From IMG/VR virus record IMGVR_UViG_3300037423_001503: a stretch of 64,000 nt of DNA; one strand, 5' to 3'. The notes below the pieces were generated by a model, which was not told the DNA's origin, did no database searches, and saw nothing but the letters and a program-made list of their open reading frames with translations. The position numbers and the translations under genes were made by a program. This document shows, in pieces, positions 7,385-36,197 of the stretch (the stretch's first letter is position 1; every line of letters starts with the position of its first letter). Source of the DNA: a virus.

Positions 7385-7996
7385 ATGGGTTCTGCTCTTA
7401 TCGTCGTTGACGCACAGTACGACTTCCTTCCTGGAGGCGCGCTTGGTGTCGAGGGCGGCTTCGACATCATCGAGCCGATCATCGAGTTCGGTCACAGCGA
7501 ACTCGTCGACCTTGTCGTCTTCACCAAGGACTGGCACAGCCCCAACCACATCGGTCATCGACGCGCCGCAGGAGGAGCAGAGCCTACCTTCACTGATGGT
7601 GATTGGCCCGTGCACTGCGTGGCTGGACTACAGGGATCTCTGATCGCCGACGAGCTACTCCTAGCGTTCAACGACGCGCCGATCTTCTACAAGGGCACCG
7701 ACGACGACGTAGAGGAGTACTCGGCCTTCGCCGGCCGGCTCGATCAAGGGGGCGTCAAGCTCGACCGCTACCTCAGCAGCGAAGGCATCAACAATCTCTA
7801 CGTTGCTGGGCTCGCGTTCGATTTCTGCGTCGGTGAGACCGCCTTTGATGCCTTCGGCCTCGGCTACGAGACGACGGTGCTGGCTGACGCGACCCGTGCC
7901 GTGTCATTCGTCGGTGGGATCGAGACGGCGGCCAAGATGGGCCGCTACCAAGGTAACGGTCTGGAGGTCGACACAGTTGACCGTCTTTTGGCTTGA
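7385..7996 (+). CDS. pncA: Nicotinamidase (isochorismatase family)
   Basis: ALIVVDAQYDF, DWH, WPVHCV, KG..., GLAFDFCV: D-K-C catalytic triad plus metal ligands. Confidence 0.9.
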   Translation: MGSALIVVDAQYDFLPGGALGVEGGFDIIEPIIEFGHSELVDLVVFTKDWHSPNHIGHRRAAGGAEPTFTDGDWPVHCVAGLQGSLIADELLLAFNDAPIFYKGTDDDVEEYSAFAGRLDQGGVKLDRYLSSEGINNLYVAGLAFDFCVGETAFDAFGLGYETTVLADATRAVSFVGGIETAAKMGRYQGNGLEVDTVDRLLA

Positions 7997-8020
7997 CATC
8001 TAGGCAGTCTTCGCTAGACT
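7993..8020 (+). promoter_or_regulatory. SigA-type promoter
   Basis: TTGACA-N16-TAGACT. Confidence 0.55.
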
Positions 8021-8848
8021 TCTAGATGGTTGACAGCCCGCGACGAACGGCCGCGACCTCCAGGTAAGGAGCGAGGGGAGCGCGACATGGGACCAATTGA
8101 GCAGCACATCCCTAGCGCGGAGAAAAACACAACCTGCTCGCCGTCGTCGTTGTAGAAAGGAACCCCAGTGATCGACACATCCAAGCTGACCAACCGCGAG
8201 CGGATCTGCCTGATCGACAAGTTGGCCGCTGAGATCGAATGGACGCTACCGCCGGGCGGCATCTTCACGACTCGTACGATCTCTGATGAGAAGGTCTCTC
8301 AGGCCATGTTCAACATTCGCCATAGCGCAGGCGAGGCGCTGAGCCGCATCTGATGGCTGCCCAAGAGCACCCAGCGGCACGCGCCGCCCGTCTTGAGGAG
8401 GCCCTGCGCTCGATCAGAGACATCCAAGAGGCGCTACCTACGTGGGTGCGGGTCAAGGAACTCAACAACTCCAACTCTGCTATCGCACGAATCGTCAATC
8501 GGGCTTTGCTCGACACGAGCGGCGGCTCCGATGCGTAGATGGCTCGCCGGCTGCCTCGCGGCGCTGTTCCTGCGTCCTGCATCGACGGTTCCGCTTGACG
8601 TGATCGAGCACGGCGACGAAGACGTTGACGAGATGTGGCGTCGTGCGCTAATTCGTGGGCGCCTCCAGCCGGAGGCCTCACCGGTGGATCCGGAGGCCAA
8701 TCGCGAGGCCTTGATCGCCGTCGCGCCGGAAGAGTTCTGGCGTGATATTGAGCGCTCAGTACGGTGACCGAGCTACGAAAGTATACGACTTTGCCCTCCG
8801 TTGAGGGGTAAAGTCCACCAATTTACATCACCACGCGGAAAGGAATCC

Positions 8849-9133
8849 ATGTCGTTGACCGACAAGGCAGCCCGTGAGCTTGCCACACAGGTTGTGAAGG
8901 ACAACAGGAGCGCCCGGGTCAAGTTCGGCCGCACCAACGGGGAGGCGCGCCTGCATGTCATCGTCCCGGCCTCGGAGGCCCCGGAGGGTGAGCCCACACT
9001 GGCCTCATTCACTCTGCGCAGCGCCGCCGATTGGTCTGCGTGTCCGTTGAATCAGCGCTTTACGCGCAACAAGGACTTCGCCGAGCAGCAGCCCACCGAG
9101 GCCTTGATGGCCGCGAACGGACGTAAGCGCTAA
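8849..9133 (+). CDS. Hypothetical protein
   Basis: GAAAGGA SD, ATG at 8849. Confidence 0.6.
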   Translation: MSLTDKAARELATQVVKDNRSARVKFGRTNGEARLHVIVPASEAPEGEPTLASFTLRSAADWSACPLNQRFTRNKDFAEQQPTEALMAANGRKR

Positions 9134-9351
9134 TGGCCGAGGCCTGCGTCGCGCTCGAACTTGATCATGATGAGGCCGTCGCGGTTGCGTCAGTGCTTGG
9201 CCGCGTCGGCTACGACGCGCTTGTCGAGGAGGCCGGCGAAACCGAGGCTGCCATCTATGCCGCCTACACGGCCTTGCGCGCTGTGACGCCAGATCCTCAG
9301 CGTTCGCTGACGCGACGTAACATCCCCCGGCTGACTAACGCGTTCGACTGA
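9133..9351 (+). CDS. Hypothetical protein
   Basis: TAATG coupling. Confidence 0.55.
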   Translation: MAEACVALELDHDEAVAVASVLGRVGYDALVEEAGETEAAIYAAYTALRAVTPDPQRSLTRRNIPRLTNAFD

Positions 9352-9630
9352 TGCGCCACAGAATCATCCAGATCATTGCTGTTCTGATCATGGTGGCGGC
9401 CTTCCTCATCGTCGCCGGAACCGGCGTCTACACCGCAATCCACTAAGTATGACTGAGTACGTCGAGTACTCGTCAGCGGACGTAAACCTCACCGCCGCCC
9501 TGAGCGTAGCCCTACACGGCGATCCGCGAGACGAACAACGTCTGCGCCGTCCGTCGGTGCGCCTTTGGCGGTGCTGGTTCTGTAAGAGCAACAGAGACGG
9601 CCACGTGCGATGTGGCTGTCTACCCGATTG

Positions 9631-9726
9631 CTAGCTTACTAGCGCTGCAAGTGCTTCAAGAGCGCACACGACGGCCAAGTAGATGGCTAGCGGCCGATGG
9701 CTCTTGAGGTAGCTCTTCTTGATCAT
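9631..9726 (-). CDS. 31-aa single-TM peptide
   Basis: MIKKSYLKSHRPLAIYLAVVCALEALAALVS; ATGA overlap with the 9723-9893 ORF. Confidence 0.45.
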   Translation of the reverse strand: MIKKSYLKSHRPLAIYLAVVCALEALAALVS

Positions 9727-9893
9727 TCGTCGTCCCCATCGCCGGGCGGCTTCAAGAAAACCGGCAACCCCATCATTGCCCCGAACAGAAGAATCAGTGT
9801 CGGTCGTTCCTGGCCCGAGAATGTCTCGTGCATGAATCCCGTCATTCCGCCCAGGAACAGCATCACGTCTCGCAGCACTGGCCATCTGTTCAT
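9723..9893 (-). CDS. 56-aa two-TM membrane protein (not in the ORF track)
   Basis: Hand translation: MNRWPVLRDVMLFLGGMTGFMHETFSGQERPTLILLFGAMMGLPVFLKPPGDGDDE. Confidence 0.6.
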   Translation of the reverse strand: MNRWPVLRDVMLFLGGMTGFMHETFSGQERPTLILLFGAMMGLPVFLKPPGDGDDE

Positions 9894-10004
9894 GTCTCAT
9901 AGGTCGCGTATTCGGCGGGTCGGTCGAGGTCCGTCACAAGGCCTAAATAGTATCAGCGAGGTCGGCACCAAGACCTTCGGTCCAGTAATTAGGAAAGGAA
10001 TCCA

Positions 10005-10358
10005 ATGGCAGCAAGTTCGTCGACGCGTCCGTCCACGATCACGTACACCTATCACGACCCTTCGCGCACCTTCGACGGTACGCCTTACGAGGCCGCCGGT
10101 CTGGCGATCGACCAGGCCAGTGCGGTCGCAAAGCTCTTCCAACGAGCGCTTCGCGACACAGCAATCCAGGTCCGCAACGCGCATCTACAGCGCGATCTCG
10201 ACCTTGGTGACGCGCCTAACGCAGAGGCTTGGGAGACATCAGCACAGAAGCGGCTCTTGGACTCGTTCTCCTCTCAGACCTCTGAGATCCAAGCGCGGAT
10301 GAAGCTTCTCCGCCGCGCCGCCGCCTACGACCCAAAGAATCCGCCGAAGGAGTTGTGA
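10005..10358 (+). CDS. Hypothetical protein
   Basis: GAAAGGA SD. Confidence 0.65.
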   Translation: MAASSSTRPSTITYTYHDPSRTFDGTPYEAAGLAIDQASAVAKLFQRALRDTAIQVRNAHLQRDLDLGDAPNAEAWETSAQKRLLDSFSSQTSEIQARMKLLRRAAAYDPKNPPKEL

Positions 10359-10514
10359 TGGAACACCGCGATACCGTAAAGACCGAGATCTACAACGCCA
10401 GCAGAGAGATCTACGACGGTAACGATTCGGCCGGCGCGGGCTACGGGCTCGTAGCGCTCGCCTACGCCGTCTATGGTGGAGCGCGAGTGATTGCCGACGC
10501 CCTGAGGGAGCGCC

Positions 10515-10808
10515 ATGGGGTGGCTGAGCGATAACGCACCGCGGCTTGCGCGAGCGCACGATGAGTTCTCTCGACTCTACGATGCCGAATATCGAGAGCG
10601 ACTACAACTCATCGACTCCATTCAGCGACTTGAAGCGCTGGTCGCGCATCGTGACCTAGAGCTTCTTCGCGCTGGAGCGCGACGCCATAAGTCGCCTAAG
10701 GACGCTGCCCGCCATCTCTCTCGTAGACAGGCAAAGCTCGACAGCGCTTCTAGCGCGCTGAAGCGGCACAACAAGCGCTTGAAGGAACTCGACGCTTGGA
10801 GACGCTGA
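10515..10808 (+). CDS. Hypothetical coiled-coil protein
   Basis: GAGGGAG SD. Confidence 0.55.
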   Translation: MGWLSDNAPRLARAHDEFSRLYDAEYRERLQLIDSIQRLEALVAHRDLELLRAGARRHKSPKDAARHLSRRQAKLDSASSALKRHNKRLKELDAWRR

Positions 10809-11125
10809 ACTACGCCGGCATCCCAATCGTGACGAGCCGCCTTGTCGAGCCAGGCAAGATGATGCTCTTCAACGGGCGTGTCGTCATGCGCCCAGTTGAC
10901 TGGCTGTACGTTCTGCATCCGTACTCGCCTGTGTGGTGCGCACGCACGCTTGGGCATCGCGAGATGGATCGCGATCGTCGCCTCCGACGTCGGGGTTGAC
11001 TATCTGCTAGTCTTGTGGTAGGCCGCTGACCGAGGCAAAGGTCGGGTTGGGGGACATTGACCCTTCGGGCGTCCCGTGTAGGTACGGCGGCCAATCACAT
11101 CCGAACTACCAGGGAGACAAACCCT

Positions 11126-11461
11126 TTGACACCTGTACTATCGGAGTTGACCCGCGGTCAGCGCTCCGTACTCCGCGCCTTCTACGAATTCGGTCCCATG
11201 GACGACACGGCGCTCACAGTGTATGTACATCACGTCGCCGAGCAGTCGATGTCGAGTTCTGGCATCCGCACTCGCCGAGCAGAACTAACGCGCACAACGC
11301 CGCCGCTGCTTCAGGCTGTTGATACGAAGCGCCTCAAGAGCGGCCGTCGGGCGGCGATTCATGCGCTGACTCCGACCGGCCAGATTCTTGCGTCGCAGTC
11401 ATTGTCCGGCGACAGCATCGGCCCGGCACCGGTTCGTCATCTGCGCCTCGTAGTTGCATGA
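11126..11461 (+). CDS. Winged-helix DNA-binding protein
   Basis: LTRGQRSVL...MSSSGIRTRRAEL...SGRRAAIHALTPTG; start placed at TTG after GGGAG. Confidence 0.6.
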   Translation: MTPVLSELTRGQRSVLRAFYEFGPMDDTALTVYVHHVAEQSMSSSGIRTRRAELTRTTPPLLQAVDTKRLKSGRRAAIHALTPTGQILASQSLSGDSIGPAPVRHLRLVVA

Positions 11462-11656
11462 TGAATCTGCTCATCTACCCGGCCGACGAAGCGCCGGAAG
11501 CTCCTATTGAGATCATGAACGTTGACCGCGTCTCATTGATCGACAACCAGTCGCATGGCGCTGGATCTACGTTCGGGATCAACAACAGCCTCACGGGGCG
11601 ACTTGTGTGGATCTCGTCGCCGAACGTCGCCGCTGTCGTTGTAGACGTCGTCTAGG

Positions 11657-12127
11657 TTGTCTGCCAACAACGGTGAACTCGTTCGCGAGTTCCACCGCTA
11701 TTTCGGACTGCCTGTGCGCGATGAGTTCACGGAGATCTCGTCCGACGAGATCGACTTCCGATTGAATCTGCTCACCGAGGAGTACCTCGAAGTGATGGAG
11801 GCCTTTGGTCGACCAGTGACAGTCGAGCGCGCGCCGTACGACACTGATCCAGACTTCGTTGAGGGTTACAAGGAACTCTCCGATCTCGAATACGTCCTGC
11901 ACGGCTTCGATATGCACCTCGGTCAAAAGCTCGACGAGGTCTTCGCTGAAACGCATCGCTCTAACATGAGCAAGCTCTGGAAGTGCGAGTGTGGTGTCGA
12001 GGACAGCACTTGTCAGCAGTGTAACGGAACAGGCGAGTATGTCAAGCGACGTGAGGACGGGAAGGTACTAAAGCCTCCGACGTATTCACGCGCTCATATC
12101 GCACCAATCCTCTCCAAGGAATCTTAG
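11657..12127 (+). CDS. MazG/HisE-like NTP pyrophosphohydrolase with a Cys-rich insert
   Basis: LVREFH...LLTEEYLE...KELSDLEYV...HRSNMSK...REDGKVLKP; CEC...CQQC insert. Confidence 0.8.
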   Translation: MSANNGELVREFHRYFGLPVRDEFTEISSDEIDFRLNLLTEEYLEVMEAFGRPVTVERAPYDTDPDFVEGYKELSDLEYVLHGFDMHLGQKLDEVFAETHRSNMSKLWKCECGVEDSTCQQCNGTGEYVKRREDGKVLKPPTYSRAHIAPILSKES

Positions 12128-12574
12128 ATGGGACGAATCAAGAAGATCTTCATGCAGGGCGGCGACAACGAGGGCGAGGAGCGTGAACTCGACCTGGACG
12201 AGTTCTACACCTCTGCCTGGAACGCGGTACCTGAAGACCTCAAGGCCGAAGGCATCGCTGTCTTGCGCCGAGAGATCAAGGACCCAACGTTCTTTCACTC
12301 GATCAGCGAGGGCGTCCGCAAGTACGGCCTCCATGAATGGGACCGACACCCTCCGTTCTCTGTACCGGTCGACGTCGGTAACGGCGAGACCATCACGTAC
12401 CCGTGGCACATGAGCGGCGGTATGGGTATCCGCAATCTGCTCCGCCAGGGCGGCGTCACCGACGACCGGCTGCCCGACAACGCAACCGACTCCTACTACG
12501 GCGAGGGCACGAACGTCAAGAACCTCGACGACTACTACATCCAGTGGCTTGAGGCCGCCGTGGGGGCTCGATGA
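12128..12574 (+). CDS. Hypothetical protein
   Basis: AAGGA SD; 148 aa. Confidence 0.6.
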   Translation: MGRIKKIFMQGGDNEGEERELDLDEFYTSAWNAVPEDLKAEGIAVLRREIKDPTFFHSISEGVRKYGLHEWDRHPPFSVPVDVGNGETITYPWHMSGGMGIRNLLRQGGVTDDRLPDNATDSYYGEGTNVKNLDDYYIQWLEAAVGAR

Positions 12575-13203
12575 GGAGAGAGGAAGCAGAGCGCCTGAAG
12601 GATCAACTCCTACGCGACATGCGCCGCCCAAGTGGCACACTACGCGTCGGCTTCCACGCCGGCCCCGGCACCGGCAAGTCGACTACATCTGCGCTCGTCT
12701 TCGGCGCGCTCAAGCAGCGCGGGCGCAACGTCGAGATGTCACACGAGTACGCGAAGGACTTGACGTGGGAGCAGCGCTCAGCAGCGCTCTCCTATCAGCC
12801 CTACATTGTGGCGAAGCAGATGTGGCGAGAGCGCCGACTAGATGGCCAGGTTGAGGCGATCCTCACCGACACCTCGACGCTGTACTCGTTCATCTACGGC
12901 ACAGAAGAGAACGGCGTTACGCCTGCGTTCAAGTCCTGGGTGCTAAGCGAGTACTTCAATGTGCCGCGGCTGGACTTCTTCCTGCTTCGCGACCACGAGC
13001 GCCCCTACAACGAGAAGGGGCGCAACCAGACTCGCGAAGAGGCCGAGGCTTTGGATAAGCCGTTGCGCGACGTGCTCATCGACAACGGCGTCGTCCACGA
13101 TCTAGTTGCCGTCGATGCGAAGGGCAACTCGCATATCGACTACATCGTCGGGCGCATCGAGACAGCGCTGGCGCTTCAACAGGAACCGACAGCGCATGCC
13201 TAA
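12571..13203 (+). CDS. NadR-like P-loop kinase/ATPase (AAA_28)
   Basis: GPGTGKST, EYAKDLTWE, ILTDTS, GRNQT. Confidence 0.75.
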   Translation: MRREEAERLKDQLLRDMRRPSGTLRVGFHAGPGTGKSTTSALVFGALKQRGRNVEMSHEYAKDLTWEQRSAALSYQPYIVAKQMWRERRLDGQVEAILTDTSTLYSFIYGTEENGVTPAFKSWVLSEYFNVPRLDFFLLRDHERPYNEKGRNQTREEAEALDKPLRDVLIDNGVVHDLVAVDAKGNSHIDYIVGRIETALALQQEPTAHA

Positions 13204-15166
13204 GCTCTCGCACGGCGAGGACCAACTAGAACTCTCCCTGACCGGCGCAGAGGATTTCCAGGCCGCGCTGGCCGCGGTCAAGGCCATCCCGGGCCGCCGC
13301 TTTGACGGCGACCGCAAGCTGTGGTGCTTCCCTGAGGATCCGGCGATTGCTGAGCGCCTCATGGTGACGGTGAAGCCAGAGCTTTCGCCTGACCTCTTGG
13401 GCTGGATCAAGGCGTCCAAGAAGAACAGCCAGAAGGAACTCGTCACCCCACTGCCCGACGATGCCGATCTCATCGTCCCCTGGGCGAAGCAGCGCGTGCA
13501 CTGGCAGCCCGAGTTCGTCGGCCCGAAGTCCGATCCTGTCGAGTTCAAGGGTCTCTACGCCTTCCAGCGCGCCTTCGCCGACTTCGCGGCCGGTAAGACC
13601 GGCAACGACGCCGCGCTCCTGTTGGCTGACGACATGGGGCTAGGCAAGTGCGGCCAGTCATCGTCGGCGATCGTCGAGTGGATGATGCGCAGCGCTGGAC
13701 TCTACGACATGCTCGCCAACAACCCCAACGGCGTTCCCGTCGAAGGCCTCTCATGCGCGGCGGATATGTTGAAGTGGGCCGCGGTCGAGGACGGACCGAA
13801 GCTCATCATCTCGCCGGCCTCGGTGAAGGGAACCTGGGGCCGCGAGCTTCGCATGTGGCTCGGTCAGGCTGAGCCCATTTTCGTCATCGACGGCGCGGCG
13901 ACGCCAAAGCGCCGCAACGCGCAGCTTCTCGACGCCATCAACAACTCCGGTTGGGCGGTCATCAACTGGGAACAGCTTCGAGTCAAGCGTGAGATCCGTA
14001 AGGTCCGCACTCGCATGATGCACGCCATCACGGGCGAGTTCTTGGGCTGGAAGGAAAAGGACAAGGAGGTCACGGTTCTCCGTGAGCCGCTGTTTGAGGA
14101 GACTCCTTGGGTAGCGGCCGTCGCCGACGAGGCGCACCGGGCGAAGAACCGTAAGGCGCTTACAACGCAGGGACTGTGGCGTGTCAGCGCTGGCTTCAAG
14201 ATGGCCTTGACGGGAACTCCGCTGATGAATTCGCCGGACGAGTTGTGGTCGATCCTGCGCTGGCTGTATCCGGAGGAGTACACCTCGTACTGGCGATTCT
14301 TCGATCAGTACGTTGACTTCTACGAGGGCCAGTACGGGAAGATCATCACTGGCGTCAAGAACGCCGACGCGTTGCGGTTCGAGCTTTCGACTCGCTTGGT
14401 CCGCCGCACCAAGGATGAGGTGCTGGATCAGCTTCCCGAGAAGACGCGTGAGTTCGTTCCGATCACGCTCAATAAGAAGCAGCGCAAGCTCTACGACGAG
14501 GCCGAGAAGCAGCTTTGGTTTGAGGTCGAGCAGGCAATCAAGGACGGTGATCGATCTGCGCTGAAGTTCGCTAAGGAGGTCTCAGCGAACCCGGCCGCCG
14601 TCTATACGGTTCCGAATGGTGCGGCGCGTATCGTGCGGCTGCGCCAGATTGCTTCCACGCCGGCCCTGTTGGGCGGCGAGGATGACTCGGCCAAGCTCGA
14701 CGCTGCTGTCGAGACCATCACCGACAACATCGGCTCGCAGTTCGTGGTATTCTCAGAGTTCGTCGATACCTGCCACATCCTTGTCGAGCGTCTACGTCGG
14801 CTGGGTGTCTCAGCAGAGGCCTTTACTGGTCAGTCTGATTCCGAGGATCGAACTCGGATGGAGAACGACTTCCAGGCGGGCGAGATCGACGTCCTCGTCG
14901 GAACGATCGGCGCGATGAAGGAGGGCATTACCCTCACCGCGGCCAGCAACATGATCTTCCTTGAGCGTCATTGGACGCCGGCTGTGAACGAACAGTGCGA
15001 GGATCGTTGCCACCGTAACGGCCAGAAGAATGCCGTGACGATCCTGATCTTCGAGGCCGAGGACACGGTCGATGCTCAGAAGATCTCACCAACAAACGCA
15101 ATCAAGTCGCTCATCGTTTCCTCGGTCATCGCCAAGGACGACGTCGCAGAGCGGAGGAGGAAGTAA
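13196..15166 (+). CDS. SNF2-family helicase with an N-terminal HARP-like domain
   Basis: LADDMGLGK, DEAH, LTGTP, EGITLT, QCEDRCHRNGQ; start moved to ATG 13196. Confidence 0.9.
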   Translation: MPKLSHGEDQLELSLTGAEDFQAALAAVKAIPGRRFDGDRKLWCFPEDPAIAERLMVTVKPELSPDLLGWIKASKKNSQKELVTPLPDDADLIVPWAKQRVHWQPEFVGPKSDPVEFKGLYAFQRAFADFAAGKTGNDAALLLADDMGLGKCGQSSSAIVEWMMRSAGLYDMLANNPNGVPVEGLSCAADMLKWAAVEDGPKLIISPASVKGTWGRELRMWLGQAEPIFVIDGAATPKRRNAQLLDAINNSGWAVINWEQLRVKREIRKVRTRMMHAITGEFLGWKEKDKEVTVLREPLFEETPWVAAVADEAHRAKNRKALTTQGLWRVSAGFKMALTGTPLMNSPDELWSILRWLYPEEYTSYWRFFDQYVDFYEGQYGKIITGVKNADALRFELSTRLVRRTKDEVLDQLPEKTREFVPITLNKKQRKLYDEAEKQLWFEVEQAIKDGDRSALKFAKEVSANPAAVYTVPNGAARIVRLRQIASTPALLGGEDDSAKLDAAVETITDNIGSQFVVFSEFVDTCHILVERLRRLGVSAEAFTGQSDSEDRTRMENDFQAGEIDVLVGTIGAMKEGITLTAASNMIFLERHWTPAVNEQCEDRCHRNGQKNAVTILIFEAEDTVDAQKISPTNAIKSLIVSSVIAKDDVAERRRK

Positions 15167-15405: not shown

Positions 15406-15413
15406 GAGTATGG

Positions 15414-15833: not shown

Positions 15834-15932
15834 GTACCACTTCACAGGCATATGACGCGCACATCGTCAGCATTTGACAGCCCTTTCTGATACACTTCAT
15901 CTACTAACCCAACGAGGAGTTTTTACAACCGC

Positions 15933-16724
15933 ATGGCAACAAAGTCGCAGGAACTAGAGGTAATCGAGGAGTCCGCGGAGCTAGACGTGATCTCCGATGA
16001 TGAAGCGGCACTCATCGCGGCCAACCAGGCCGACGTCGATGCCTCTGAGTTCGTCATCCCGATCGTCAAGCTCGCGCAGCCGCTGACCGACGAGGTCACC
16101 TCTGGTAACGCCAAGGCCGGCGAGTTCATCCTCGGCCTTACCGGTGAGTCGTTCGCAGCGCCGGTCGAGTTCGTCGTCGCCGGCAAGGGCAAGGGCCGGT
16201 TCAAGCCGGGCCGAGACGGTGAGCGCACGCTCGTCGCCTACGACACCCCAACCGTGCCTTGGAAGGATGACCCCTTCTACGGACAGCCGTTCACTGAGCA
16301 CCCCGACGCCGAGGAGAAGTTCAAGGCTCGCGTCGACGCCGGTGAGATCGAGTGGGGTCACGGCCCGACGATCCAGACGACGTTCAACTACACCGGCTAC
16401 ATCGTCGGCTCTGACGTACCTGTGCGTCTCAGCCTCCGCCGCACCTCTGCTCCGGCAGCGCGTAAGTGGAACACGCTCCTCGACGCGGTCCTCCGTGGCC
16501 GTTACTGGGATCAGGTCTTCACGGTCGGCTCTGAGCAGCAGAAGAACAACAAGGGCGCGTACTACGTCGTGACGGTTCAGCCGTCGCGCAAGACCTCGCC
16601 CGAGGAGAAGAAGGCCGCCATTCAGTTGGCGACCGCGCTGCGCAACCAGTCCGTCACCACGGTTGGCGAGACCGACGACGCACCTACGTCCGCGCCGGAC
16701 GCTAACGGCGGCATCGAGCTTTAG
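15933..16724 (+). CDS. Putative single-stranded DNA-binding protein
   Basis: IPIVKLAQ...AKAGEF N-terminus, NNKGAYYV, acidic tail; sits between helicase and primase. Confidence 0.6.
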   Translation: MATKSQELEVIEESAELDVISDDEAALIAANQADVDASEFVIPIVKLAQPLTDEVTSGNAKAGEFILGLTGESFAAPVEFVVAGKGKGRFKPGRDGERTLVAYDTPTVPWKDDPFYGQPFTEHPDAEEKFKARVDAGEIEWGHGPTIQTTFNYTGYIVGSDVPVRLSLRRTSAPAARKWNTLLDAVLRGRYWDQVFTVGSEQQKNNKGAYYVVTVQPSRKTSPEEKKAAIQLATALRNQSVTTVGETDDAPTSAPDANGGIEL

Positions 16725-16750
16725 CTCGAACACAGCACCCCACGCTGTCC

Positions 16751-16793: not shown

Positions 16794-16831
16794 CAAGTCT
16801 TTGAAGTACCTCCAAGAGAGGAGGATCATTG

Positions 16832-17797
16832 ATGCCTGAAGCCAATCCATTCGTCGGCCGGTTCATGAAGCTCTTCGACGGCCTCGACGACGCCTACGGC
16901 ACAGGCCGCGGCCAGTGGGTTCGCGAACAGCCTAAGCGGGCGCAGTTCTCAGAACATCTCGCCGGCCGCGGACCAGGCCTAGGAATCGGTCCGCTGCGTC
17001 GCGACGGCACGGTTGTCTTCGCCGCCGTCGATCTCGACGAGCCCGACTTCGACACCGCCCAGGCCATCGCAGCGCTGCTTCCAGGAACGCAGTTCATCGA
17101 ACGTAGCCGTTCCGGCAATGCGCACATCTTCACGTTCTTCTCGGCACCGATCGAGGGCTGGATCGCAAGAGGGTTGATGCGCGAGGCCTGCGCCGCGCTC
17201 AAGAAGAAGTTTGTTGAGGTGTTTCCGAAGCAGGATCGCCTCCGCGACGACATGCTTGGCAACTACCTCAACTTGCCCTATTACGGTAACGACCGGCCGG
17301 TAGTTGGTGTCTCAGTCGGCACTGGCGGTCATCTCGATCTTGACCATCCGTTGACGCTAGACGAGTTCATTGAACGCGCAGAGGGGACACTCAACGACCC
17401 TCAGGATTGGGTCAAGCGCGCTCGTTGGCTGGGCGTTCCATCACCTGAGGAGCGCGCCTCTGAGGGGCGCGAGTTCGGCACCTCACAGACGCTCCACATG
17501 TGCTGTGAGTATGTGATCGCCAACCGCGACGAGAACCCCATCGTCGATGGCCATCGAGCGGTTGTCTACTTCGCGCTGGCTAAGCAACTCGCTAACTGTG
17601 AGTTGTACTCAGAGGACGAGGCTGTTGACCTGTTGGTGTTGATCAACGATTCGTCACCTGATCCGGTCTCAGAATCTGAGCTTCGACACATGTATCGCAA
17701 CGCCGTGCGGGGCCAATATACGTCGACCGGCTGCGATGATCCTCTCTTCCAGCCTTACGCACATCCAGAATGCCCCATCTCAAATGGAGGAAAGTAA
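16832..17797 (+). CDS. AEP-superfamily primase with a C-terminal PriCT/PriL-like domain
   Basis: DLD, RSRSGNAH, GNYLNLPY; C-terminal Cys cluster. Confidence 0.8.
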   Translation: MPEANPFVGRFMKLFDGLDDAYGTGRGQWVREQPKRAQFSEHLAGRGPGLGIGPLRRDGTVVFAAVDLDEPDFDTAQAIAALLPGTQFIERSRSGNAHIFTFFSAPIEGWIARGLMREACAALKKKFVEVFPKQDRLRDDMLGNYLNLPYYGNDRPVVGVSVGTGGHLDLDHPLTLDEFIERAEGTLNDPQDWVKRARWLGVPSPEERASEGREFGTSQTLHMCCEYVIANRDENPIVDGHRAVVYFALAKQLANCELYSEDEAVDLLVLINDSSPDPVSESELRHMYRNAVRGQYTSTGCDDPLFQPYAHPECPISNGGK

Positions 17798-22211: not shown

Positions 22212-22214
22212 CGA

Positions 22215-25775: not shown

Positions 25776-25777
25776 CG

Positions 25778-28356: not shown

Positions 28357-28441
28357 CGTCGCCGCGCTCTGCACTGTAAGCACGAGGCTTCTGGATGAGG
28401 AGCCAAGGAGGACGATCGACTTCCTTGCTGGCGACGCCGCA

Positions 28442-28726
28442 ATGAGGATCGGACACCTAATCCGGGCGTGGCACGACGGAGGATGTGACGACCCAGCGCC
28501 TCAGCAGGCCGAGCGATCGTTTGTTGATCAAACCGGGTGGCTCACCGACGAGGAGCGCGCCAGGTACAACGAGCTTGGCGATCTAAGTCGCGCGAAGATC
28601 TTCAAGTTGTGTATCGAGTTTGACATGGATCGTCTTGCTGAACTCCCGCTCGCGCGGGCAGAGATGCGAGCGCGTACGCTGGCTGAGTCTAAGGCCTTGA
28701 CCTTCCTGGAAGGCGAGCTTCTGTGA
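28442..28726 (+). CDS. Hypothetical protein
   Basis: ORF coupled to the resolvase gene. Confidence 0.5.
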   Translation: MRIGHLIRAWHDGGCDDPAPQQAERSFVDQTGWLTDEERARYNELGDLSRAKIFKLCIEFDMDRLAELPLARAEMRARTLAESKALTFLEGELL

Positions 28727-29223
28727 GGTGGCTTTCCGTCGATCCCGGCGAGGACACAGGCTGGGCTCTTTGGGAGGACGGCGACCTCATCGACGCCGGC
28801 ACCGACAAGCTGTGGCAGTTCGGTGAGGCCGTCTACGCGGCTACCCACGAGGACTCCGAGAGCCTCGAACTCGTCGGTGATGACCTGGCGTTGAAGTTCA
28901 TCGGCGTCGAACGCATCGTCTGTGAGGACTGGCGCATCTACCCCTGGGAGGCCAAGAAGGGCACCCTGAACTGGGACCAGTGTCGCACAGCGCGGCTCAT
29001 TGGTGGCCTAACCTTGGTGGCGAAGATGAAGGGCATGGAGTTTGTCCTTCAGGGCGCGAAGATCAAGGAGCGCGCCGAGGCCGCCGGTGCTGAGGCGTTG
29101 TTCATGTCGCCGCTGGTGGAGAACCGCCACGCCAACGACGCCATCCGTCACGGCGTCTACTACTTGGCGATCGAGCGCGGCGCGCGGCCGGTCGAAATGG
29201 AGGGTGATGGTGCTAATGCGTAG
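28723..29223 (+). CDS. RuvC-like Holliday junction resolvase
   Basis: LSVDPGEDTGWA, IVCEDW, HANDAIRH. Confidence 0.8.
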   Translation: MRWLSVDPGEDTGWALWEDGDLIDAGTDKLWQFGEAVYAATHEDSESLELVGDDLALKFIGVERIVCEDWRIYPWEAKKGTLNWDQCRTARLIGGLTLVAKMKGMEFVLQGAKIKERAEAAGAEALFMSPLVENRHANDAIRHGVYYLAIERGARPVEMEGDGANA

Positions 29224-29937
29224 AGAGCACAGAAACCTCTACAGGCTGTGCCGCCCGCTGTCGTACGTCATGCCAGAGGCGGCGCTGCGCTGGCTGCATC
29301 GCCATTGGAAGCTGGCCTCGGACGACACCGATGACTGGAGTTTCTGGCTCGACGTCAGCTACGAACGCTACTGGAGAAGGAGTATCGAGCGGTGACTGAG
29401 TTTAGGTTGTGCTGGTCAGCGAGCAGCAACATCACCTTCCGCGGCGAGACCGACTGGGAAGAGTGGGATAACGAGGACGAATCTCCAGAGATGTACTTCT
29501 ACTCTCTTGAGAGTCCTGGGCTTACCAACATGGCTGTCGGTCTCAGCGAAGTCTTGGAGGCCAGCGGTTTCGATTGGTGGGTAGAGACCAGATGATCTCC
29601 GGTAAGGTGCGCGGCGAATGCATTCACTTCGACTGCGCCACCGACGAAGAGATGACACTGACATGGATGGCATTCTTCACCGAGGAGGCCGCCAAGGACC
29701 TCGACTGCGATCGATGCGGACGACCGCTCAACGAAGTTCCCGATCCGTGACCGCAACGACAAGTAATTCACGCGTCAATCCAGAGCGTAACCGCTGCCCG
29801 AACTTCGAGGAGTGCGGTATGTCGTGTTCGCACGATCCGGAGTACATGGGTTGGCCGCAGACCGGGCTCCGATATCCTGAGCGCGCATGCAGCCGCGAGT
29901 GCGTTCGTGCGCTGCTGATGAAGCGGGCGCTGTCGGT

Positions 29938-30252
29938 ATGATCTTCCAAGAGAACCTAGGATACGAGCGAGTGCCGCGCGACGATGAGTTCGTCGATGCG
30001 GCATTTCGTCTTTGTGGTGAGGAACCGCCGCGATCCTACTCGATCTATACTTTGATGCGCGTCATCCCTCGCGACGTCGCCCGTCAGGAACTCGCTGGTG
30101 ACATCATGCTAGCCAAGATGAAGTCGCTGGCCGCCGAGCTAGACAGCGCACAGCCGCCCGCAGATGGACTGATTACCTGTGACTGTGCTTGTCATAGGCC
30201 GCCGTATTACGACCGCACCGGCGGCTGCGTCCACTGCATTCTGATTGGTTAG
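29938..30252 (+). CDS. Hypothetical protein with a Cys-rich C-terminus
   Basis: CDCACH...CVHC. Confidence 0.5.
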
Positions 30253-30325
30253 TCAACACGACTGACCAAATCGTGTTACACTTCCTTCACCCCATGCCGA
30301 TCGACCTCAACAAGGAGTCGTCGGT

Positions 30326-30616
30326 ATTTCACGCCGAAGGAAGGGAGCAGAACCAGAGCCTCGGGTTTTGACCGAGGACGTGCAGGTAATTCTCCGTCGA
30401 GTAGTTCGCCCAGATCAAGACGATGAGGGCGCGTCGGTTGCGACGATTGCGGAGAAGGCAGACACATCAACACGGACCGTCTATCGCGTCTTGGCCGGCA
30501 CAACCAAGACGCTGTCGTTGAGCCTGGCGGACCGACTGTGCATCGCCGCGGACGCGCATCTCTCCGAGTGCCGCCTCTCGTGGCCCGACGGTAGGGTCGA
30601 GCCCTACTTGTGGTAA
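30326..30616 (+). CDS. HTH transcriptional regulator (start is ATT 30326 or TTG 30368)
   Basis: SVATIAEKADTSTRTVYRVL...LADRLC. Confidence 0.75.
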   Translation: MSRRRKGAEPEPRVLTEDVQVILRRVVRPDQDDEGASVATIAEKADTSTRTVYRVLAGTTKTLSLSLADRLCIAADAHLSECRLSWPDGRVEPYLW

Positions 30617-30697
30617 TCGCGGTACCGACCTTTCCGAACCAACACGGACCTCGGTAACACCGCTCCATAGGTGAGATCTACGGCCCAATAGGGCCTT

Positions 30698-30720
30698 TTT
30701 GTCAATCTGGTCGGTAGATT
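30698..30720 (+). promoter_or_regulatory. Putative late promoter for terS, leaderless
   Basis: TTTGTCA-N10-TAGATT-N7-ATG, directly after the terminator hairpin ggccc-aata-gggcc-ttttt. Confidence 0.6.
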
Positions 30721-30727
30721 ACGGTCT

Positions 30728-31177
30728 ATGGCTCGCATCTCAAAGCTCGCTAACCCAGACTTCGCAAAGGCCGTCGCCGAGGCATACGTGAACGGTATGT
30801 CTCGTGAAGAGATGGCTGATGAGTTCGCCTGCCATAAGGACACCATCACGATCTGGACACGTGACCCGCGCGTTCAGGCACACGTCTCTCGTCTCGCGCA
30901 GGAGCGCGTCAATCGCATCACGCGCAAGATTGATAAGGAGATCGAAGGCCGTCTCCAGGACGCAGAGGAGATGGACACCGAGGTCTTGCTGAAGATCCGC
31001 AAGGAGTTCCTCGGCAACGTCATCAAGCCAATCGAGGGTGCCGGCGCTGACCGTGCCGAGACCGTATCTGAGACCATCAAGGCTGTCGAGGAATCGCCGG
31101 ACCTTGCCGATGCGCTACAGCAGCTACTCCTGGGCGGCGGGCACAACGCTACGCGCGAGCCCAACGCGGACGAGTAA
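30728..31177 (+). CDS. terS: Terminase small subunit (HTH)
   Basis: N-terminal HTH (GMSREEMADEFACHKDTITIW); upstream of terL. Confidence 0.65.
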   Translation: MARISKLANPDFAKAVAEAYVNGMSREEMADEFACHKDTITIWTRDPRVQAHVSRLAQERVNRITRKIDKEIEGRLQDAEEMDTEVLLKIRKEFLGNVIKPIEGAGADRAETVSETIKAVEESPDLADALQQLLLGGGHNATREPNADE

Positions 31178-31304
31178 TGCACTTCAAGAAGTGCTCAAGA
31201 TGTGATGATCATTACACGTTGACTGTCGGTCGGCTTGTTCTGGCAACCCGAACCATCAATGAGCGGCGGGCGTTCCTCATCGGCTCTAGGATGTTGATGT
31301 TCTA

Positions 31305-32867
31305 GTGATCTCTGACGAGGGCCGTCAGAACATCATCGACGCGCACAAGGAGCGCACCACCGATTCACGGCGCGAGAATGACGCGCGCATGGATCGTCTG
31401 CTCGCGCTGGCGCAGGCAGATCCGCAGGCTTTCCAGAGCCTTGTCCAGAAGGTCATGGGCAAGATGCTGGTCCCTCACTCCGAAGGCCAGAAGGAAGTAC
31501 TCACCGCTGAAGAACGCTTCCTCGTCCTTTGTGCAGGTCGCCGGTGGGGAAAGTCGCAAATCGGGGCGGCGAAGGCGCTTCGCACGGCTCGCAAGCCGCG
31601 CCAAATCGTATGGTGGGTCGCGCCGACCTACAAGGTCGTCAAGCGTGGCTACGAGGCCGTAGTCAAGCAGTGCCCGGACGAGCTTCTCCAGAAGCCCGCG
31701 CCGCCATCGTCTGGCTTTGACGCCGGCCGTGCGATTCGCTTGAACTTCAAGAACGGAACCATCATGGAGTTCTACTCCGCCGAGCGCCCAGAGGGCATGC
31801 TGGGCGGTAGCTGCGACTTCATGATTCTCGACGAGGCCGCGACGATGCCTGAGCACGTCTGGACTCAGATCATTCGAGCAACCCTTGCAGACCGCAAGGG
31901 CAAGGCATTGTTCATCTCCACTCCACGCGGTAAGAACTGGTTCTACCGCATGTGGATGAACGGCCAGGATCCCCAACAGCCGGAGTATCGCTCGTGGCGG
32001 TTCCCGAGCCGGACGAACCCAACCATCGATCCGGCCGAGTTCGACGGCATGGAGGCCGAGCTTCCGCTTGCCGTCTACGAGCAGGAGATCCTCGCCGAGT
32101 TCATCTCCAACGCCGCCAGCGTCTTTAGGTTCCCGAGGGCTCGCGATCCCGAGACCGGCGAGGAATCCAACGATCTACGCAGCCCTGCGATCGTCGAGAT
32201 GGTGCAGCCGCGCGGCCATGTAATCCTCGGCATCGACCTCGCCAAGCACAACGACTTCTCGGTCCTCTTCGGAGTCCGGGCCGGCGATCGACAGCCGTGC
32301 TGGCACGATCGATTCAATCAAGTTTCGTGGCCGAAGCAGCGGGCACTCATCAACGAAGCCGTCGATGAGATCCTCAGGACCGCTGACGGCGTTACGCTCG
32401 TCGTGGACTCCACCGGCGTCGGTGACGTCATCTACGACGACCTCGCCGAGGCCGGCTATGACGTCGTCGGCATCAAGTTCTCGCCTCAGTGGAAGACGTC
32501 GGCGGTTCAGCTTCTGTCGGCAGATCTTGAGCGCGGTCACGCCTTCATCATCGAGGAGATGCTGCCTGAGTTCGAGTCCTACTCGTACTCGATCAGCGAA
32601 AGCGGACGGTGGAAGTACGAGGCAGCCACGGGGCATGACGATGAGGTCTCCGCGGCACTCCTCGCGCATTGGGGAGTCGTCCACTCCGGCGTCCCCAACA
32701 TCCAAACGCTTCACGGGGGTGGGGACTCGATCGTCGGCGAGTCAAGCGACGAGTTCCTCGTTTGGGAAGATGAAGCCGAGATCGTCGACACCGGCGTCGC
32801 TCAGGTCCGCACCGTCGCGGTTCCGACGATCGCTGACCTGATGAACAACCCCAACTCCTGGGGCTAG
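31305..32867 (+). CDS. terL: Terminase large subunit
   Basis: AGRRWGKS, ILDEAA, ISTPRG, GIDLA, HDDEV. Confidence 0.95.
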   Translation: MISDEGRQNIIDAHKERTTDSRRENDARMDRLLALAQADPQAFQSLVQKVMGKMLVPHSEGQKEVLTAEERFLVLCAGRRWGKSQIGAAKALRTARKPRQIVWWVAPTYKVVKRGYEAVVKQCPDELLQKPAPPSSGFDAGRAIRLNFKNGTIMEFYSAERPEGMLGGSCDFMILDEAATMPEHVWTQIIRATLADRKGKALFISTPRGKNWFYRMWMNGQDPQQPEYRSWRFPSRTNPTIDPAEFDGMEAELPLAVYEQEILAEFISNAASVFRFPRARDPETGEESNDLRSPAIVEMVQPRGHVILGIDLAKHNDFSVLFGVRAGDRQPCWHDRFNQVSWPKQRALINEAVDEILRTADGVTLVVDSTGVGDVIYDDLAEAGYDVVGIKFSPQWKTSAVQLLSADLERGHAFIIEEMLPEFESYSYSISESGRWKYEAATGHDDEVSAALLAHWGVVHSGVPNIQTLHGGGDSIVGESSDEFLVWEDEAEIVDTGVAQVRTVAVPTIADLMNNPNSWG

Positions 32868-33143
32868 AAAAGATCTCACACATCTAGTCTACTGCGTGGT
32901 ACGCTACCGCGCATGGACGAACCTGATGCCCTCTTCCCAGCGCCGCCCGCGGGCTGGCAGTATGGTGTCGTCATGGCCGACGGGACCGTTTGGGGCTGTG
33001 GGACGAGCGAGCACGGGCGCTGGCTTCAGCGCCGACGCCTCAGCTACTCCAACGTCTCTGGCCCGTGTCTGTTGCCAGGCTCGGCGGATCTGAATCAGCG
33101 GCACCGTCGCCTCGCCCTCGGCTCTTGACAGCCGAACGCGGAC

Positions 33144-33172
33144 TTGACTCGGAGTGGCCGCGCTGCTAGCCT
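33144..33172 (+). promoter_or_regulatory. SigA-type promoter, leaderless
   Basis: TTGACT-N17-TAGCCT with TG extension, N8 to GTG 33181. Confidence 0.6.
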
Positions 33173-33180
33173 TCTCGGCC

Positions 33181-33501
33181 GTGAACGAGAACCCCTGCAC
33201 CGACTGGCTTACCGGTCCATTCAGCGCCTACCCAGGCGACCGTGAACTTCTCGACCGCCTCGGTCTCAAGACCTACGGCTACCCATTCTCAGAGTTGATG
33301 AAGCTGGGTCAGGTGGTCTTCGACAACGAGGCCAAGGTTGACGTCTTCGTACTTGCGCTGCCGGCGCAGTCATGGAACTTCGTCATCACGCGTCCGGACG
33401 AGGAGAGCTTCAAGCTCTCGACCGGGACTGGTAAGTTCACGGAGTTCTGGCCGATGGCTGCGATGCTGGCCACCAACTGCGTCTCCGTGAGTAGGTTGTG
33501 A
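33181..33501 (+). CDS. Hypothetical protein
   Basis: Start lies behind the 33144 promoter. Confidence 0.55.
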   Translation: MNENPCTDWLTGPFSAYPGDRELLDRLGLKTYGYPFSELMKLGQVVFDNEAKVDVFVLALPAQSWNFVITRPDEESFKLSTGTGKFTEFWPMAAMLATNCVSVSRL

Positions 33502-33502
33502 C

Positions 33503-33805
33503 GTGCGTTTGACGGATGAGCATCTTCACGCGCTCGTTGCCAATAACCCCAACGACGAGGATCTTCTCCAGGAGCTACGCCAACGCGTGCGCTGGGCAGC
33601 GATCCGGGCGATCCCTGCGCGACGGGGCTACTGTAGCGCCGGCAAGCGAGTCGTGCTCGACGAGAAGGGCGCGTACTCGTCCGGGTACCCAATGCATTAC
33701 GAGGAGGAGTTCACGACGTGTATGCACACAGGCAGAATCGTGTTTGACGAGCCCAACGCGCGCACTCTGCGACTCCAGGCGCTGATCGAGGAGTTGAGAC
33801 CATGA
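33503..33805 (+). CDS. Hypothetical protein
   Basis: Coupled ORF. Confidence 0.5.
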   Translation: MRLTDEHLHALVANNPNDEDLLQELRQRVRWAAIRAIPARRGYCSAGKRVVLDEKGAYSSGYPMHYEEEFTTCMHTGRIVFDEPNARTLRLQALIEELRP

Positions 33806-34053
33806 AGCATCCACTGGAGGGCGCGACCGTCGCCCGCGTCGTGTTCGATGCGCGGGTCGAGACACACTACTCATGGCTAACGCCCGAAGATGACCTGCAT
33901 GATCGCCTATTTGTCCGCGACGGCCAGGTCTACGGTGAGCACGACGTGGAGCTTGCCATCGAGACCATCGACGGGCGCGTCTTCACGGCCAATACGTGTG
34001 GTTGTTGCTGCGGCATCGGCGGCGAACTCGGCGACGCCGATCGGATTCTCTGA
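33802..34053 (+). CDS. Hypothetical protein
   Basis: GAGGAG SD; CGCCC motif. Confidence 0.5.
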   Translation: MKHPLEGATVARVVFDARVETHYSWLTPEDDLHDRLFVRDGQVYGEHDVELAIETIDGRVFTANTCGCCCGIGGELGDADRIL

Positions 34054-34240
34054 TGGCAGCCTTGACCGCCGATGAGGCCGGCGAGATCGTCGGTCTGCTA
34101 AGTTCTGTGAGGAAGATGGACAAGGTTCGCCCTGATCCGATCCTGCTCTACGACTCAAACGGCGAGTACGTCGGACAGATCAAGTACGACACCCACAACG
34201 GTTACATGTACTACCTGCCGGGCGATCTTGGGGTGGACGA

Positions 34241-34558
34241 GTGAAGGGAACCTGCGGGTCGCAGGACTGGGCTTACACTGATAATGGAAACGTCATCATC
34301 TACGGTACCTGCGAGCGAGAGCCTTTTCACGAAGGACGCCACGTCGAGCACCGAGATGGAAAGCTCTGGGCCGAGTGGTCCGACCTCTCCTGGCGGCGCG
34401 CGCCCACTGAGTGGGAGACCCGCGCCGCAGAACTAGCACAAGCCCTGCTCGACATCGCTGAGATCGCGATGCCAGATACGTACTTTGAGACCGATTCGCG
34501 CTGCCAGATGGCGCGTCAGACACTGGAGGCGTTGGGCTATGCCGACGATGAGGAATGA
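34241..34558 (+). CDS. Hypothetical protein
   Basis: Coupled ORF. Confidence 0.5.
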   Translation: MKGTCGSQDWAYTDNGNVIIYGTCEREPFHEGRHVEHRDGKLWAEWSDLSWRRAPTEWETRAAELAQALLDIAEIAMPDTYFETDSRCQMARQTLEALGYADDEE

Positions 34559-35057
34559 AATCATCGAAGGCGCGCTAGAGATTCTGCGCGACCCAAAAAG
34601 CTGCACGAGTGGCGGTATGAGCCGACGCAGCGAGGGCCGTTACTGTGCGGCCGGCGCGCTGCTGAAGTCCGCGAGAGATCTCGGCGTCGACCTCAAGGAT
34701 CATGTCGACCGCCCTACGATCAGCCGCGCCGTGCTGGCCTTCATGGATGGCAACCGCGAGCGCACAGTCGAGATCCTTGAGCAGGCGCGAGCGTAGTGGG
34801 CTGCGTCTACTGTGATAGTCTGCTCTGCCGCTGCCCGCAACCACCTCCGCCGGATCCTGATCTCGTCGCCTGGGCGTCGGTTGGGCGCACGGGTATGTGT
34901 GTGCATTCCAGAAGAACCGAGGGCTGCGCGGGCTGTGAACTCCGACGTCTACGAGCGGCGCTGCGGCAGACCGCCCAAGACCTGATCGAGATCTCACACG
35001 CGTACTACGTCACAGATCCGCGCCGACGCCGAGCGCAGCTAATCCTAGAGGAACTCA

Positions 35058-36197
35058 ATGACCAGAACTGATCCCGCAGTCTTCAACCTACCCGTCGACA
35101 AGCTCCGCGAGGGCTACTACGCCGACGCGTACTTCAACCGCGCCCGTGAACTCCTGATCGCCAACGGGCGTCATCCTCGCGTCGTGATGCAGGTCTTCCA
35201 GCGAGAGCACAGCTTCGCTGGTGGTGTCGATGAGGCCATCGCGATGCTGAAGCTCGGCGCGGGCGGCTACTACACGTGGAACTCGGCCGGCGACACCATG
35301 GTGAGGGCTCCCGGACCTGGGCGTCCCATCGGTGGCTACTGGAAGGACGGCTTCGAAGACCTCGTCGTCAAGGCGCTTCCCGAGGGCGCAGAGATCTCGC
35401 CGTGGGAGCCGGTGCTTCAGATCGAGGGCGACTACACGCTGTTTGCGCATCTTGAGACCACCATGCTGGGTGTGATGGCGCGCCGCAGCCTCGTCATGCG
35501 TAACGTCAAGGAAGCGATCGCGGCAGCGAACGGTAAGCCGATTTGGTTCTTCCCGGCTCGCCACGACCACTGGGCGGTTCAGACCGGTGACGGAATCGCC
35601 GCGCATCAGGCGGGCATTGAGGGCGTCTCCACTGACGCCGGTGCCTCGTGGTGGGGCGGACGAGGGATGGGGACGATCCCACACGCGCTGATCGCCGCCT
35701 ATGGCGGTGACACCGTCACTGCGGCGCGAGAGTTCGCCCAGCGCTACAAGGACTCCATGAACGTGACCGTGTTGGTGGACTTCCACAACGACTCCGTCCA
35801 TACGGCACTTCAGGTGGCTGAGGAACTTGGCGACGACCTGTGGGGCGTCCGACTCGACACGTCCGGCAATCTCGTCGACTACGAGATCCAGCGCGATCTC
35901 AACTACGGCGAGTACGCACCGACTGGCGTGAACCCAAGGCTCGTTGAGCTTGTCCGGAGAAGGCTTGACGATAACGGGCACGAGAACGTGAAGATCGTCG
36001 TCTCTGGCGGCTTCAAGGCCGCCAAGATCCGCGAGTTCGAGCGCCTCCATGTCCCGGTTGATGCCTATGGTGTGGGAAGCTCACTGATTCGCGGATCCAA
36101 CGACTACACCGCCGACATCGTACGCACCAACGACGCGCAGTGCGCGAAGGTCGGACGATGGGAACGCGACGACTCACGGCTGGAAGTCGTTCGATGA
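35058..36197 (+). CDS. pncB: Nicotinate phosphoribosyltransferase (type II PRTase, NAPRTase/QAPRTase family)
   Basis: YYADAYF, FPARH, GTIPHA, LVDF, GVRLDTS, KIVVSGG, YGVGS. Confidence 0.85.
   Translation: MTRTDPAVFNLPVDKLREGYYADAYFNRARELLIANGRHPRVVMQVFQREHSFAGGVDEAIAMLKLGAGGYYTWNSAGDTMVRAPGPGRPIGGYWKDGFEDLVVKALPEGAEISPWEPVLQIEGDYTLFAHLETTMLGVMARRSLVMRNVKEAIAAANGKPIWFFPARHDHWAVQTGDGIAAHQAGIEGVSTDAGASWWGGRGMGTIPHALIAAYGGDTVTAAREFAQRYKDSMNVTVLVDFHNDSVHTALQVAEELGDDLWGVRLDTSGNLVDYEIQRDLNYGEYAPTGVNPRLVELVRRRLDDNGHENVKIVVSGGFKAAKIREFERLHVPVDAYGVGSSLIRGSNDYTADIVRTNDAQCAKVGRWERDDSRLEVVR

Follow-up and report, generated by a model that had tools for sequence, protein, structure and literature searches.

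Several described phage systems encode the synthesis of nicotinamide adenine dinucleotide (NAD+). NARP1, composed of Adps and Namat, and NARP2, composed of Nampt and Nmnat, were described by Osterman et al. (bioRxiv 10.1101/2024.02.11.579819), who never mention nicotinamidase or nicotinate. NARP3 is composed of PnuC and the bifunctional NadR-like protein Bas30_86 (Sci Adv 2026, PMC13464706). The phage NAD+ enzymes named in a 2022 survey by Iyer et al. (PMC9503650) are NadV, NadM, and NadR; PncA is not mentioned there. The 'NAD-jumbo phages' possess pncB-nadD-nadE clusters, such as that of Kuafu_71, and a phage pncA is mentioned in the same work (Microbiome 2024, PMC11662467). There, counter-defence against NAD+ depletion was proposed without experiments. 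No paper was found in the literature in which a phage PncA or a deamidating route was tested against a defence system. Here, we describe a stretch of 64,000 nucleotides (the window) from the virus record IMGVR_UViG_3300037423_001503, which encodes a predicted nicotinamidase, PncA, and a putative nicotinate phosphoribosyltransferase (NAPRTase).

The window corresponds to bases 3984-67983 of a linear, 79,110-bp IMG/VR record with a CheckV completeness of 56%. Over its first 78,000 bases, a sister phage, G001 (IMGVR_UViG_3300037313_001223; 139,911 bp, CheckV 100% complete), is colinear with this record; the whole sequence of G001 was also analysed. An initial annotation of the window had proposed a deamidating route of NAD+ salvage built from three genes, and the three open reading frames (ORFs) were confirmed at their positions:

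7385-7996, + strand: pncA, a nicotinamidase (isochorismatase-like cysteine hydrolase) of 203 aa, identified through Pfam, NCBIfam, and PDB matches.
35058-36197, + strand: an archaeal-type (PRK07188/PRK08662-like) nicotinate phosphoribosyltransferase (PRTase) of 379 aa, identified through NCBIfam, PDB, and Foldseek.
12571-13203, + strand: a stand-alone, single-domain protein of 210 aa with an AAA_28 P-loop kinase fold (Pfam AAA_28, phrog_2107).

Our preferred account, to which we give a probability of roughly 0.6, is that PncA and the PRTase are two auxiliary NAD+-salvage enzymes acting in series, and that the host completes the pathway, so that NAD+ is sustained or rebuilt. PncA would convert nicotinamide to nicotinate. 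The host-derived, archaeal-type NAPRTase would then combine nicotinate with phosphoribosyl pyrophosphate (PRPP) to give nicotinate mononucleotide (NaMN), which host NadD and NadE would carry to NAD+. The benefit would be an NAD+ pool that is sustained or rebuilt during infection, including after NAD+ has been split into nicotinamide and ADP-ribose by SIR2- or TIR-type enzymes. The view that no described phage route deamidates is outdated by the published Preiss-Handler clusters of pncB-nadD-nadE (PMC11662467), and the list of described routes, given as NARP1 and NARP2, now includes NARP3 (PMC13464706). The arrangement found here is a minimal, dispersed, and host-dependent version of an already published idea and is not new in general.

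The pncA gene has a ribosome-binding site (AAAGGA) 8 nt upstream. Its product matches the Pfam Isochorismatase family (1.8e-16; 61.2 bits, above the cutoff of 27) and, in a PDB search, solved nicotinamidases with E values of 2e-27 to 6e-19. The top structures (29iv, 2wt9, 1im5, 2h0r, and 3pl1; E 2e-27 to 2e-20) are all of nicotinamidases, which are also the only matches that are not weak. As the initial annotation had it, the motifs are intact. Across an alignment that includes the sister-phage copy and a range of named nicotinamidases, no variation is seen in the triad D9/K103/C148 or in the metal ligands D49/H51/H77, and H55 is nearly invariant; an isochorismatase from another, unrelated viral contig (L102) lacks H55. 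Outside its own cluster, no database protein is more than 44% identical to PncA, and the nearest named proteins are all nicotinamidases. A tblastn search of phages with PncA returned 14 records, several of which are probably bacterial fragments. At the family level, the product of 7385-7996 belongs to the nicotinamidases; its catalytic triad and metal site are intact, and its activity is predicted.

The assignment of the PRTase to the nicotinate type is supported by family models, a PDB profile search, and Foldseek. Among the NCBIfam matches, the NadC model is weak (E 0.0019), and no Nampt model is present. The single sequence matches 2i14 (4.5e-34) and 1ytd (1.2e-16) in the PDB. A profile built from 13 sequences matches only structures of the NAPRTase type: 2i14 (1.8e-43), 1ytd (1.2e-21), 2f7f (3.4e-17), and human NAPRT, 4yub (0.023); against the PDB, this profile found no Nampt or Namat chain and placed quinolinate phosphoribosyltransferase (QPRT) at an E value of 0.54. 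The AlphaFold model has a confidence (pLDDT) of 82, and its top Foldseek matches are 2i14, 1ytd, and 2f7f, followed by QPRTases. Residues 190-200 have a pLDDT below 50, making the pyridine-site loop unreliable in the model. Inspection of the alignments found that the family motifs are kept: the N-terminal D-x-Y-F, F-P-A-R, G-V-S, G-T-x-P-H, R-L-D-T-S, and G-V-G-S. The His of G-T-x-P-H aligns with the phospho-histidine of classical NAPRTases. The functions suggested by these motifs follow the general understanding of type II PRTases, along with PMC4442680. PHROGs has no family for the PRTase, and a tblastn search of phages recovered only 14 records, all at 28% identity or less. By family and fold, the PRTase appears to be an NAPRTase-type enzyme and not a QPRT or a Nampt. 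We infer that it is specific for nicotinate and that it acts jointly with PncA.

The remaining enzymes of NAD+ synthesis were searched for in both the 79-kb record and the complete sister phage, with every family detected in control genomes. Neither phage record contains NMNAT/NadD (PF01467), the NAD synthetase NadE (PF02540), Prs (PF13793), Nampt or a classical NAPRTase (PF04095), PnuC (PF04973), or the NAD-dependent ligase LigA (PF01653). The initial annotation had seen no adenylyltransferase or NAD synthetase in the window, and this extends to the 79-kb record and to the whole sister genome; the search of the remaining genome for nadD, nadM, nadE, and prs that it suggested likewise returned no PF01467, PF02540, or PF13793. 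The absence of PF01467, PF02540, PF13793, PF04095, and PF04973 excludes NARP1, NARP2, and NARP3, as well as the full set of Preiss-Handler genes. With no downstream enzyme in the phage, nicotinamide would be taken to NaMN only, and host NadD and NadE must finish NAD+.

Several known systems resemble this locus in part. The NAD-jumbo phages also carry enzymes of the deamidated branch, with a proposed role against NAD+ depletion and complementarity with the host pathway. Unlike these phages, which have clustered genes, a PF04095-type PRTase, jumbo genomes, and Bacteroidota hosts, the phage described here has PncA and a PncB analogue only, without NadD or NadE. Its pncA and PRTase genes are 27 kb apart, its PRTase is of the short archaeal type, its genome is ~140 kb, and its host is likely a soil actinobacterium. 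NARP1 differs in that neither phage record has a Prs-like PF13793 or PF04095 protein. NARP2, as represented by NadV/NatV of Vibrio phage KVP40, likewise begins with nicotinamide, drawing on PRPP and a PRTase of type II. However, NARP2 is non-deamidating, proceeds through nicotinamide mononucleotide (NMN), and is self-sufficient, whereas the present route would proceed through nicotinate and NaMN and depend on host NadD/NadE; the NARP2 enzymes Nampt and Nmnat are absent here (no PF04095, no PF01467). The likeness to NARP3 is limited to a kinase domain of the AAA_28 type, from which the 'NadR-like' label was derived. In contrast to NARP3, there is no PnuC and no adenylyltransferase domain, and the 210-aa protein is a candidate kinase that consists of this fold alone.

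The record is clearly phage DNA. It encodes an HK97-type capsid protein, prohead protease, tail tube protein, and lysozyme, as well as a terminase, family A DNA polymerase, primase-like AEP (archaeo-eukaryotic primase), and SNF2 helicase. The G+C content of the window is 61%. Protein similarity suggests a soil phage of actinobacteria with a genome of ~140 kb, and the host class is likely Thermoleophilia. The same DNA is present in 11 metagenome DNA runs from soil or rhizosphere. No RNA run is listed among the sequencing runs containing the phage DNA, which carries no information on expression, and INPHARED phages contain no near-identical DNA. Both genes of interest are conserved in the sister phage. 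The PncA copies are 67% identical, with a ratio of nonsynonymous to synonymous substitution (dN/dS) of 0.19, and the PRTase copies are 85-88% identical, depending on the alignment, with a dN/dS of 0.14. The DNA polymerase has a close value (0.14). Thus, pncA and the PRTase gene are under purifying selection, and the AAA_28 gene is likewise kept in the sister phage under purifying selection.

Cellular proteins ~60-64% identical to the PRTase number in the thousands. The best 80 genome loci were examined, and nearly all belong to Thermoleophilia (Solirubrobacterales, Thermoleophilaceae, Miltoncostaeaceae, and Conexibacteraceae); they include the isolate Solirubrobacter deserti, and a few are labelled merely Actinomycetota, Actinobacteria, or Actinomycetes. 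The nearest cellular relatives, from Thermoleophilia, are ~64% identical. The phage PRTase falls within a clade of 24 sequences (FastTree support 0.86-0.97) whose contigs are phage-sized, at 142 kb or less. Most PRTases of this clade, the one in the window included, have an insertion of 20-30 residues in the N-terminal domain (at about residues 70-95) that cellular homologues do not have. The best sequence and fold matches in the PDB are the archaeal NAPRTases Ta1145 of Thermoplasma acidophilum (1ytd/1ytk) and 2i14 of Pyrococcus furiosus. These share a length of ~380-395 aa and the G-V-S and G-T-x-P-H-A-L motifs, but they are only ~24-29% identical and lack both the S-T-D-A motif of the phage/Thermoleophilia family and the insertion of the phage clade. 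The pattern looks like a single capture of the PRTase from the host class, after which a phage lineage kept it for a long time.

The role of the PRTase in its cellular setting was surveyed in an even sample of 121 Thermoleophilia genomes, scored for the PRTase, classical PncB, PncA, and SIR2_2. In all five PRTase-bearing genomes that were checked for these enzymes, a bona fide NadC is encoded separately and PF04095 is absent. The PRTase is therefore not the QPRTase of these bacteria, and it is their only candidate PRTase for pyridine salvage. The PRTase is found in 59 genomes and classical PncB in 20, and no genome has both, where ~10 would be expected by chance. This lack of overlap suggests that one enzyme replaces the other in the same, PncB-like role. 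A PncA-like gene, called at E <= 1e-20, is present in 33 of the 121 genomes: 16 with classical PncB (usually adjacent), 9 with the PRTase, and 8 with neither. The PRTase is the sole salvage PRTase found in the nine genomes where it accompanies PncA. Among the best 80 cellular loci, PncA lies inside the 8-kb flank of the PRTase in 14, and in 12 of these it is convergent at a distance of 0.7-1.2 kb; both annotated loci (L041 and L023) have a PCMT gene between the two. This proximity is weak evidence because the loci are related. NadD is encoded by 4/5 host-class genomes and NadE by 5/5. PncA and the PRTase would form the coherent pair of steps to NaMN that the initial annotation had outlined; its kinase component was not supported. 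Most of the sampled Thermoleophilia with the PRTase have no detected nicotinamidase, so the phage PncA may supply a step that the host is missing.

Several other genes of the phage were noted:

6721-7179, + strand: an HD_4, RelA/SpoT-hydrolase-like phosphohydrolase of 152 aa, two genes upstream of pncA (phrog_990, 1.6e-41; also Pfam and NCBIfam).
7179-7370, + strand: an ORF of 63 aa that separates the HD gene from pncA, with a 57% identical ORF in the sister phage.
36377-37159, + strand: a Thg1-like tRNA-His guanylyltransferase (Pfam, 3e-29; phrog_4717, 5.5e-68).
41407-42135, - strand: RlaP.
43074-44423, - strand: RtcB.
15933-16724, + strand: a Pam3_Gp34-like protein of the replication module.
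16829-17797, + strand: a protein of the replication module with an AEP-TOTE-type archaeo-eukaryotic primase domain.

The HD_4 protein is conserved in the sister phage (74%), and its gene shares a co-directional array with pncA. It is possibly a small alarmone hydrolase, and the two genes may form a small counter-defence cluster. Thg1-like, RlaP, and RtcB make up an RNA-repair set; a blastp search of the called ORFs found no counterpart of the Thg1-like gene in the sister phage. None of pncA, the PRTase gene, or the AAA_28 gene matches a PADLOC defence model, and the possibility that they belong to a phage-borne defence system was rejected. The part of G001 that is absent from the record encodes a 177-aa NUDIX protein (L012:14379-14912, + strand), for which ADP-ribose or NAD(H) could be a substrate, and a CCA-adding/poly(A) polymerase-HD enzyme (L013:16597-18069, - strand). 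The word GAGCTATCC is not in the window and is located in the part of the genome that precedes it.

The third gene of the initial annotation is an AAA_28 member (33.8 bits; Pfam cutoff 27), as had been claimed, but its description as NadR-like was not supported. AAA_28 is the Pfam family of the NadR kinase domain, which raises the possibility that the protein is a ribosylnicotinamide kinase providing a second, NadR-like entry into NAD+. Its AlphaFold (AF2) model is confident (pLDDT 93) and gives only weak Foldseek matches (E 2e-5 to 4e-4) to thymidylate, adenylate, and deoxynucleoside kinases and NadR. NadR 8x7f has the best TM-score (0.63; the others 0.5-0.6), yet the other kinases match the model equally well, and a profile of 36 AAA_28 sequences has no significant PDB match, reaching NadR 1lw7 at an E value of 0.17 in a match over the full length. 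The homologues are stand-alone proteins of ~180-230 aa, are found almost exclusively on viral contigs, and occur in 75 INPHARED phages. Among five annotated phage neighbourhoods, an NAD gene is nearby in one: Myxococcus phage Mx1, where the homologue is 1.3 kb from a true Nampt. In the others, the homologue lies directly before tRNA arrays (Caulobacter and Brevundimonas phages), amid nucleotide-metabolism genes (cyanophage S-CBWM1), or amid unannotated genes (Ralstonia phage RsoM2USA). The genes next to the AAA_28 gene in the window encode a MazG-like pyrophosphohydrolase and the SNF2 helicase. The tRNA-array context is a hint that the substrate is related to RNA or nucleotides and not to NAD. 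The phage also has no PnuC and no NMN adenylyltransferase with which to use the product of a ribosylnicotinamide kinase, and we regard this function as very improbable. As its likeness to NadR could not be demonstrated and its homologues are not regularly associated with NAD genes, the AAA_28 protein was dropped from the route; it is probably a phage P-loop kinase that takes no part in that route. In the jumbo phages Brevundimonas phage Bajun (L104:3998-4510) and Caulobacter phage CcrBL9 (L107:4016-4522), both Dolichocephalovirinae, the homologues abut large tRNA arrays, and the records label them variously as thymidylate kinase or NadR.

A number of observations weigh against the two-enzyme salvage account. 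PncA scores 101.9 bits against the NCBIfam nicotinamidase model PRK11609 (4e-29), under the equivalog cutoff of 174 bits. The PRTase similarly scores 320.7 bits against PRK07188 (1e-95; cutoff 378) and 221.7 bits against PRK08662 (1e-65; cutoff 243). The two genes are dispersed and do not form an operon, as noted from the outset; they are separated by ~27 kb here and ~28 kb in the sister phage. Each is located in a long co-directional array with its own Shine-Dalgarno sequence, and promoter and terminator scans around them found nothing beyond chance and no common regulatory signal. A protein search of related phage contigs with the PRTase and AAA_28 gene gave no close PncA. Of the other IMG/VR contigs that encode 42-47% identical relatives of the PRTase, only G008 has an isochorismatase-family gene, and that gene lacks nicotinamidase hallmarks. 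The host assignment comes solely from protein similarity. Within the Thermoleophilia, PncA is undetected in 50 of the 59 PRTase-bearing genomes and present in 16 of the 20 with classical PncB, which suggests that in most of these bacteria the PRTase operates with no nicotinamidase beside it and may take nicotinamide as a substrate. The family also has an invariant Asp of its own, D193 (S-T-D-A), in the loop matching the pyridine-binding G-T-D/G-T-S region. D193, the sub-cutoff scores, and the absence of PncA from those genomes would all fit a nicotinamide-using or promiscuous PRTase that makes NMN as a non-orthologous stand-in for Nampt, with PncA acting independently. We consider such an enzyme quite unlikely. 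The similarity of the PRTase to Nampt and Namat, in sequence and fold, is limited to the shared superfamily, and its G-V-S motif agrees with the archaeal NAPRTases 2i14 and 1ytd. If the PRTase made NMN, PncA would compete for the same substrate, and the phage has no NMN adenylyltransferase.

The purpose of the salvage pair is a separate matter. Large phages commonly carry NAD-synthesis genes, and these have been interpreted as general metabolic reprogramming (PMC11662467, PMC9503650). Here, pncA and the PRTase gene are inside ordinary early and replication gene arrays, and no NADase-sensing or inhibitor gene was noticed near them. The pair could then be a plain metabolic booster, in which more Preiss-Handler flux keeps NAD+ available for replication in slow-growing soil hosts, unrelated to immunity by NAD+-cleaving enzymes (NADases). 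This explanation is on the doubtful side. No NAD-dependent ligase is encoded by the phage, nor was any other consumer of NAD recognised in it; it does invest in counter-defence-like proteins (RtcB, RlaP, the Thg1-like enzyme, and the HD alarmone-hydrolase-like protein), and nicotinamide is specifically the NADase product. A counter-defence purpose, taken by itself, falls somewhat short of even odds. Of the 121 Thermoleophilia genomes, 17 have a defence-type SIR2_2 domain, and this occurrence, like the other counter-defence-like genes, is circumstantial; a general NAD+ boost is an equally simple explanation. A more specific form of the salvage account is that the phage completes a pathway that the host cannot run. 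Nicotinamide released by SIR2 or TIR NADases, a dead end without PncA, would be converted to NaMN by PncA and an additional NAPRTase of the host type, in a minimal, host-dependent deamidating route distinct from NARP1, NARP2, and NARP3. This form is tentative, and we think it rather doubtful.

Because the general idea has already been published for jumbo phages, the gain from this locus is incremental. What is unusual is a short archaeal-type PRTase that appears to have been captured from Thermoleophilia, together with a divergent PncA that is missing in many candidate hosts. Should the two enzymes rebuild NAD+ while NADases are acting, the deamidating Preiss-Handler branch would also serve as a phage counter-defence, and two genes would suffice when the host provides NadD and NadE. 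It would also mean that phages have captured a short archaeal-type NAPRTase family that soil Thermoleophilia carry widely. In the bacteria themselves, this short, PRK07188-like PRTase family seems to stand in for classical PncB across an entire class.

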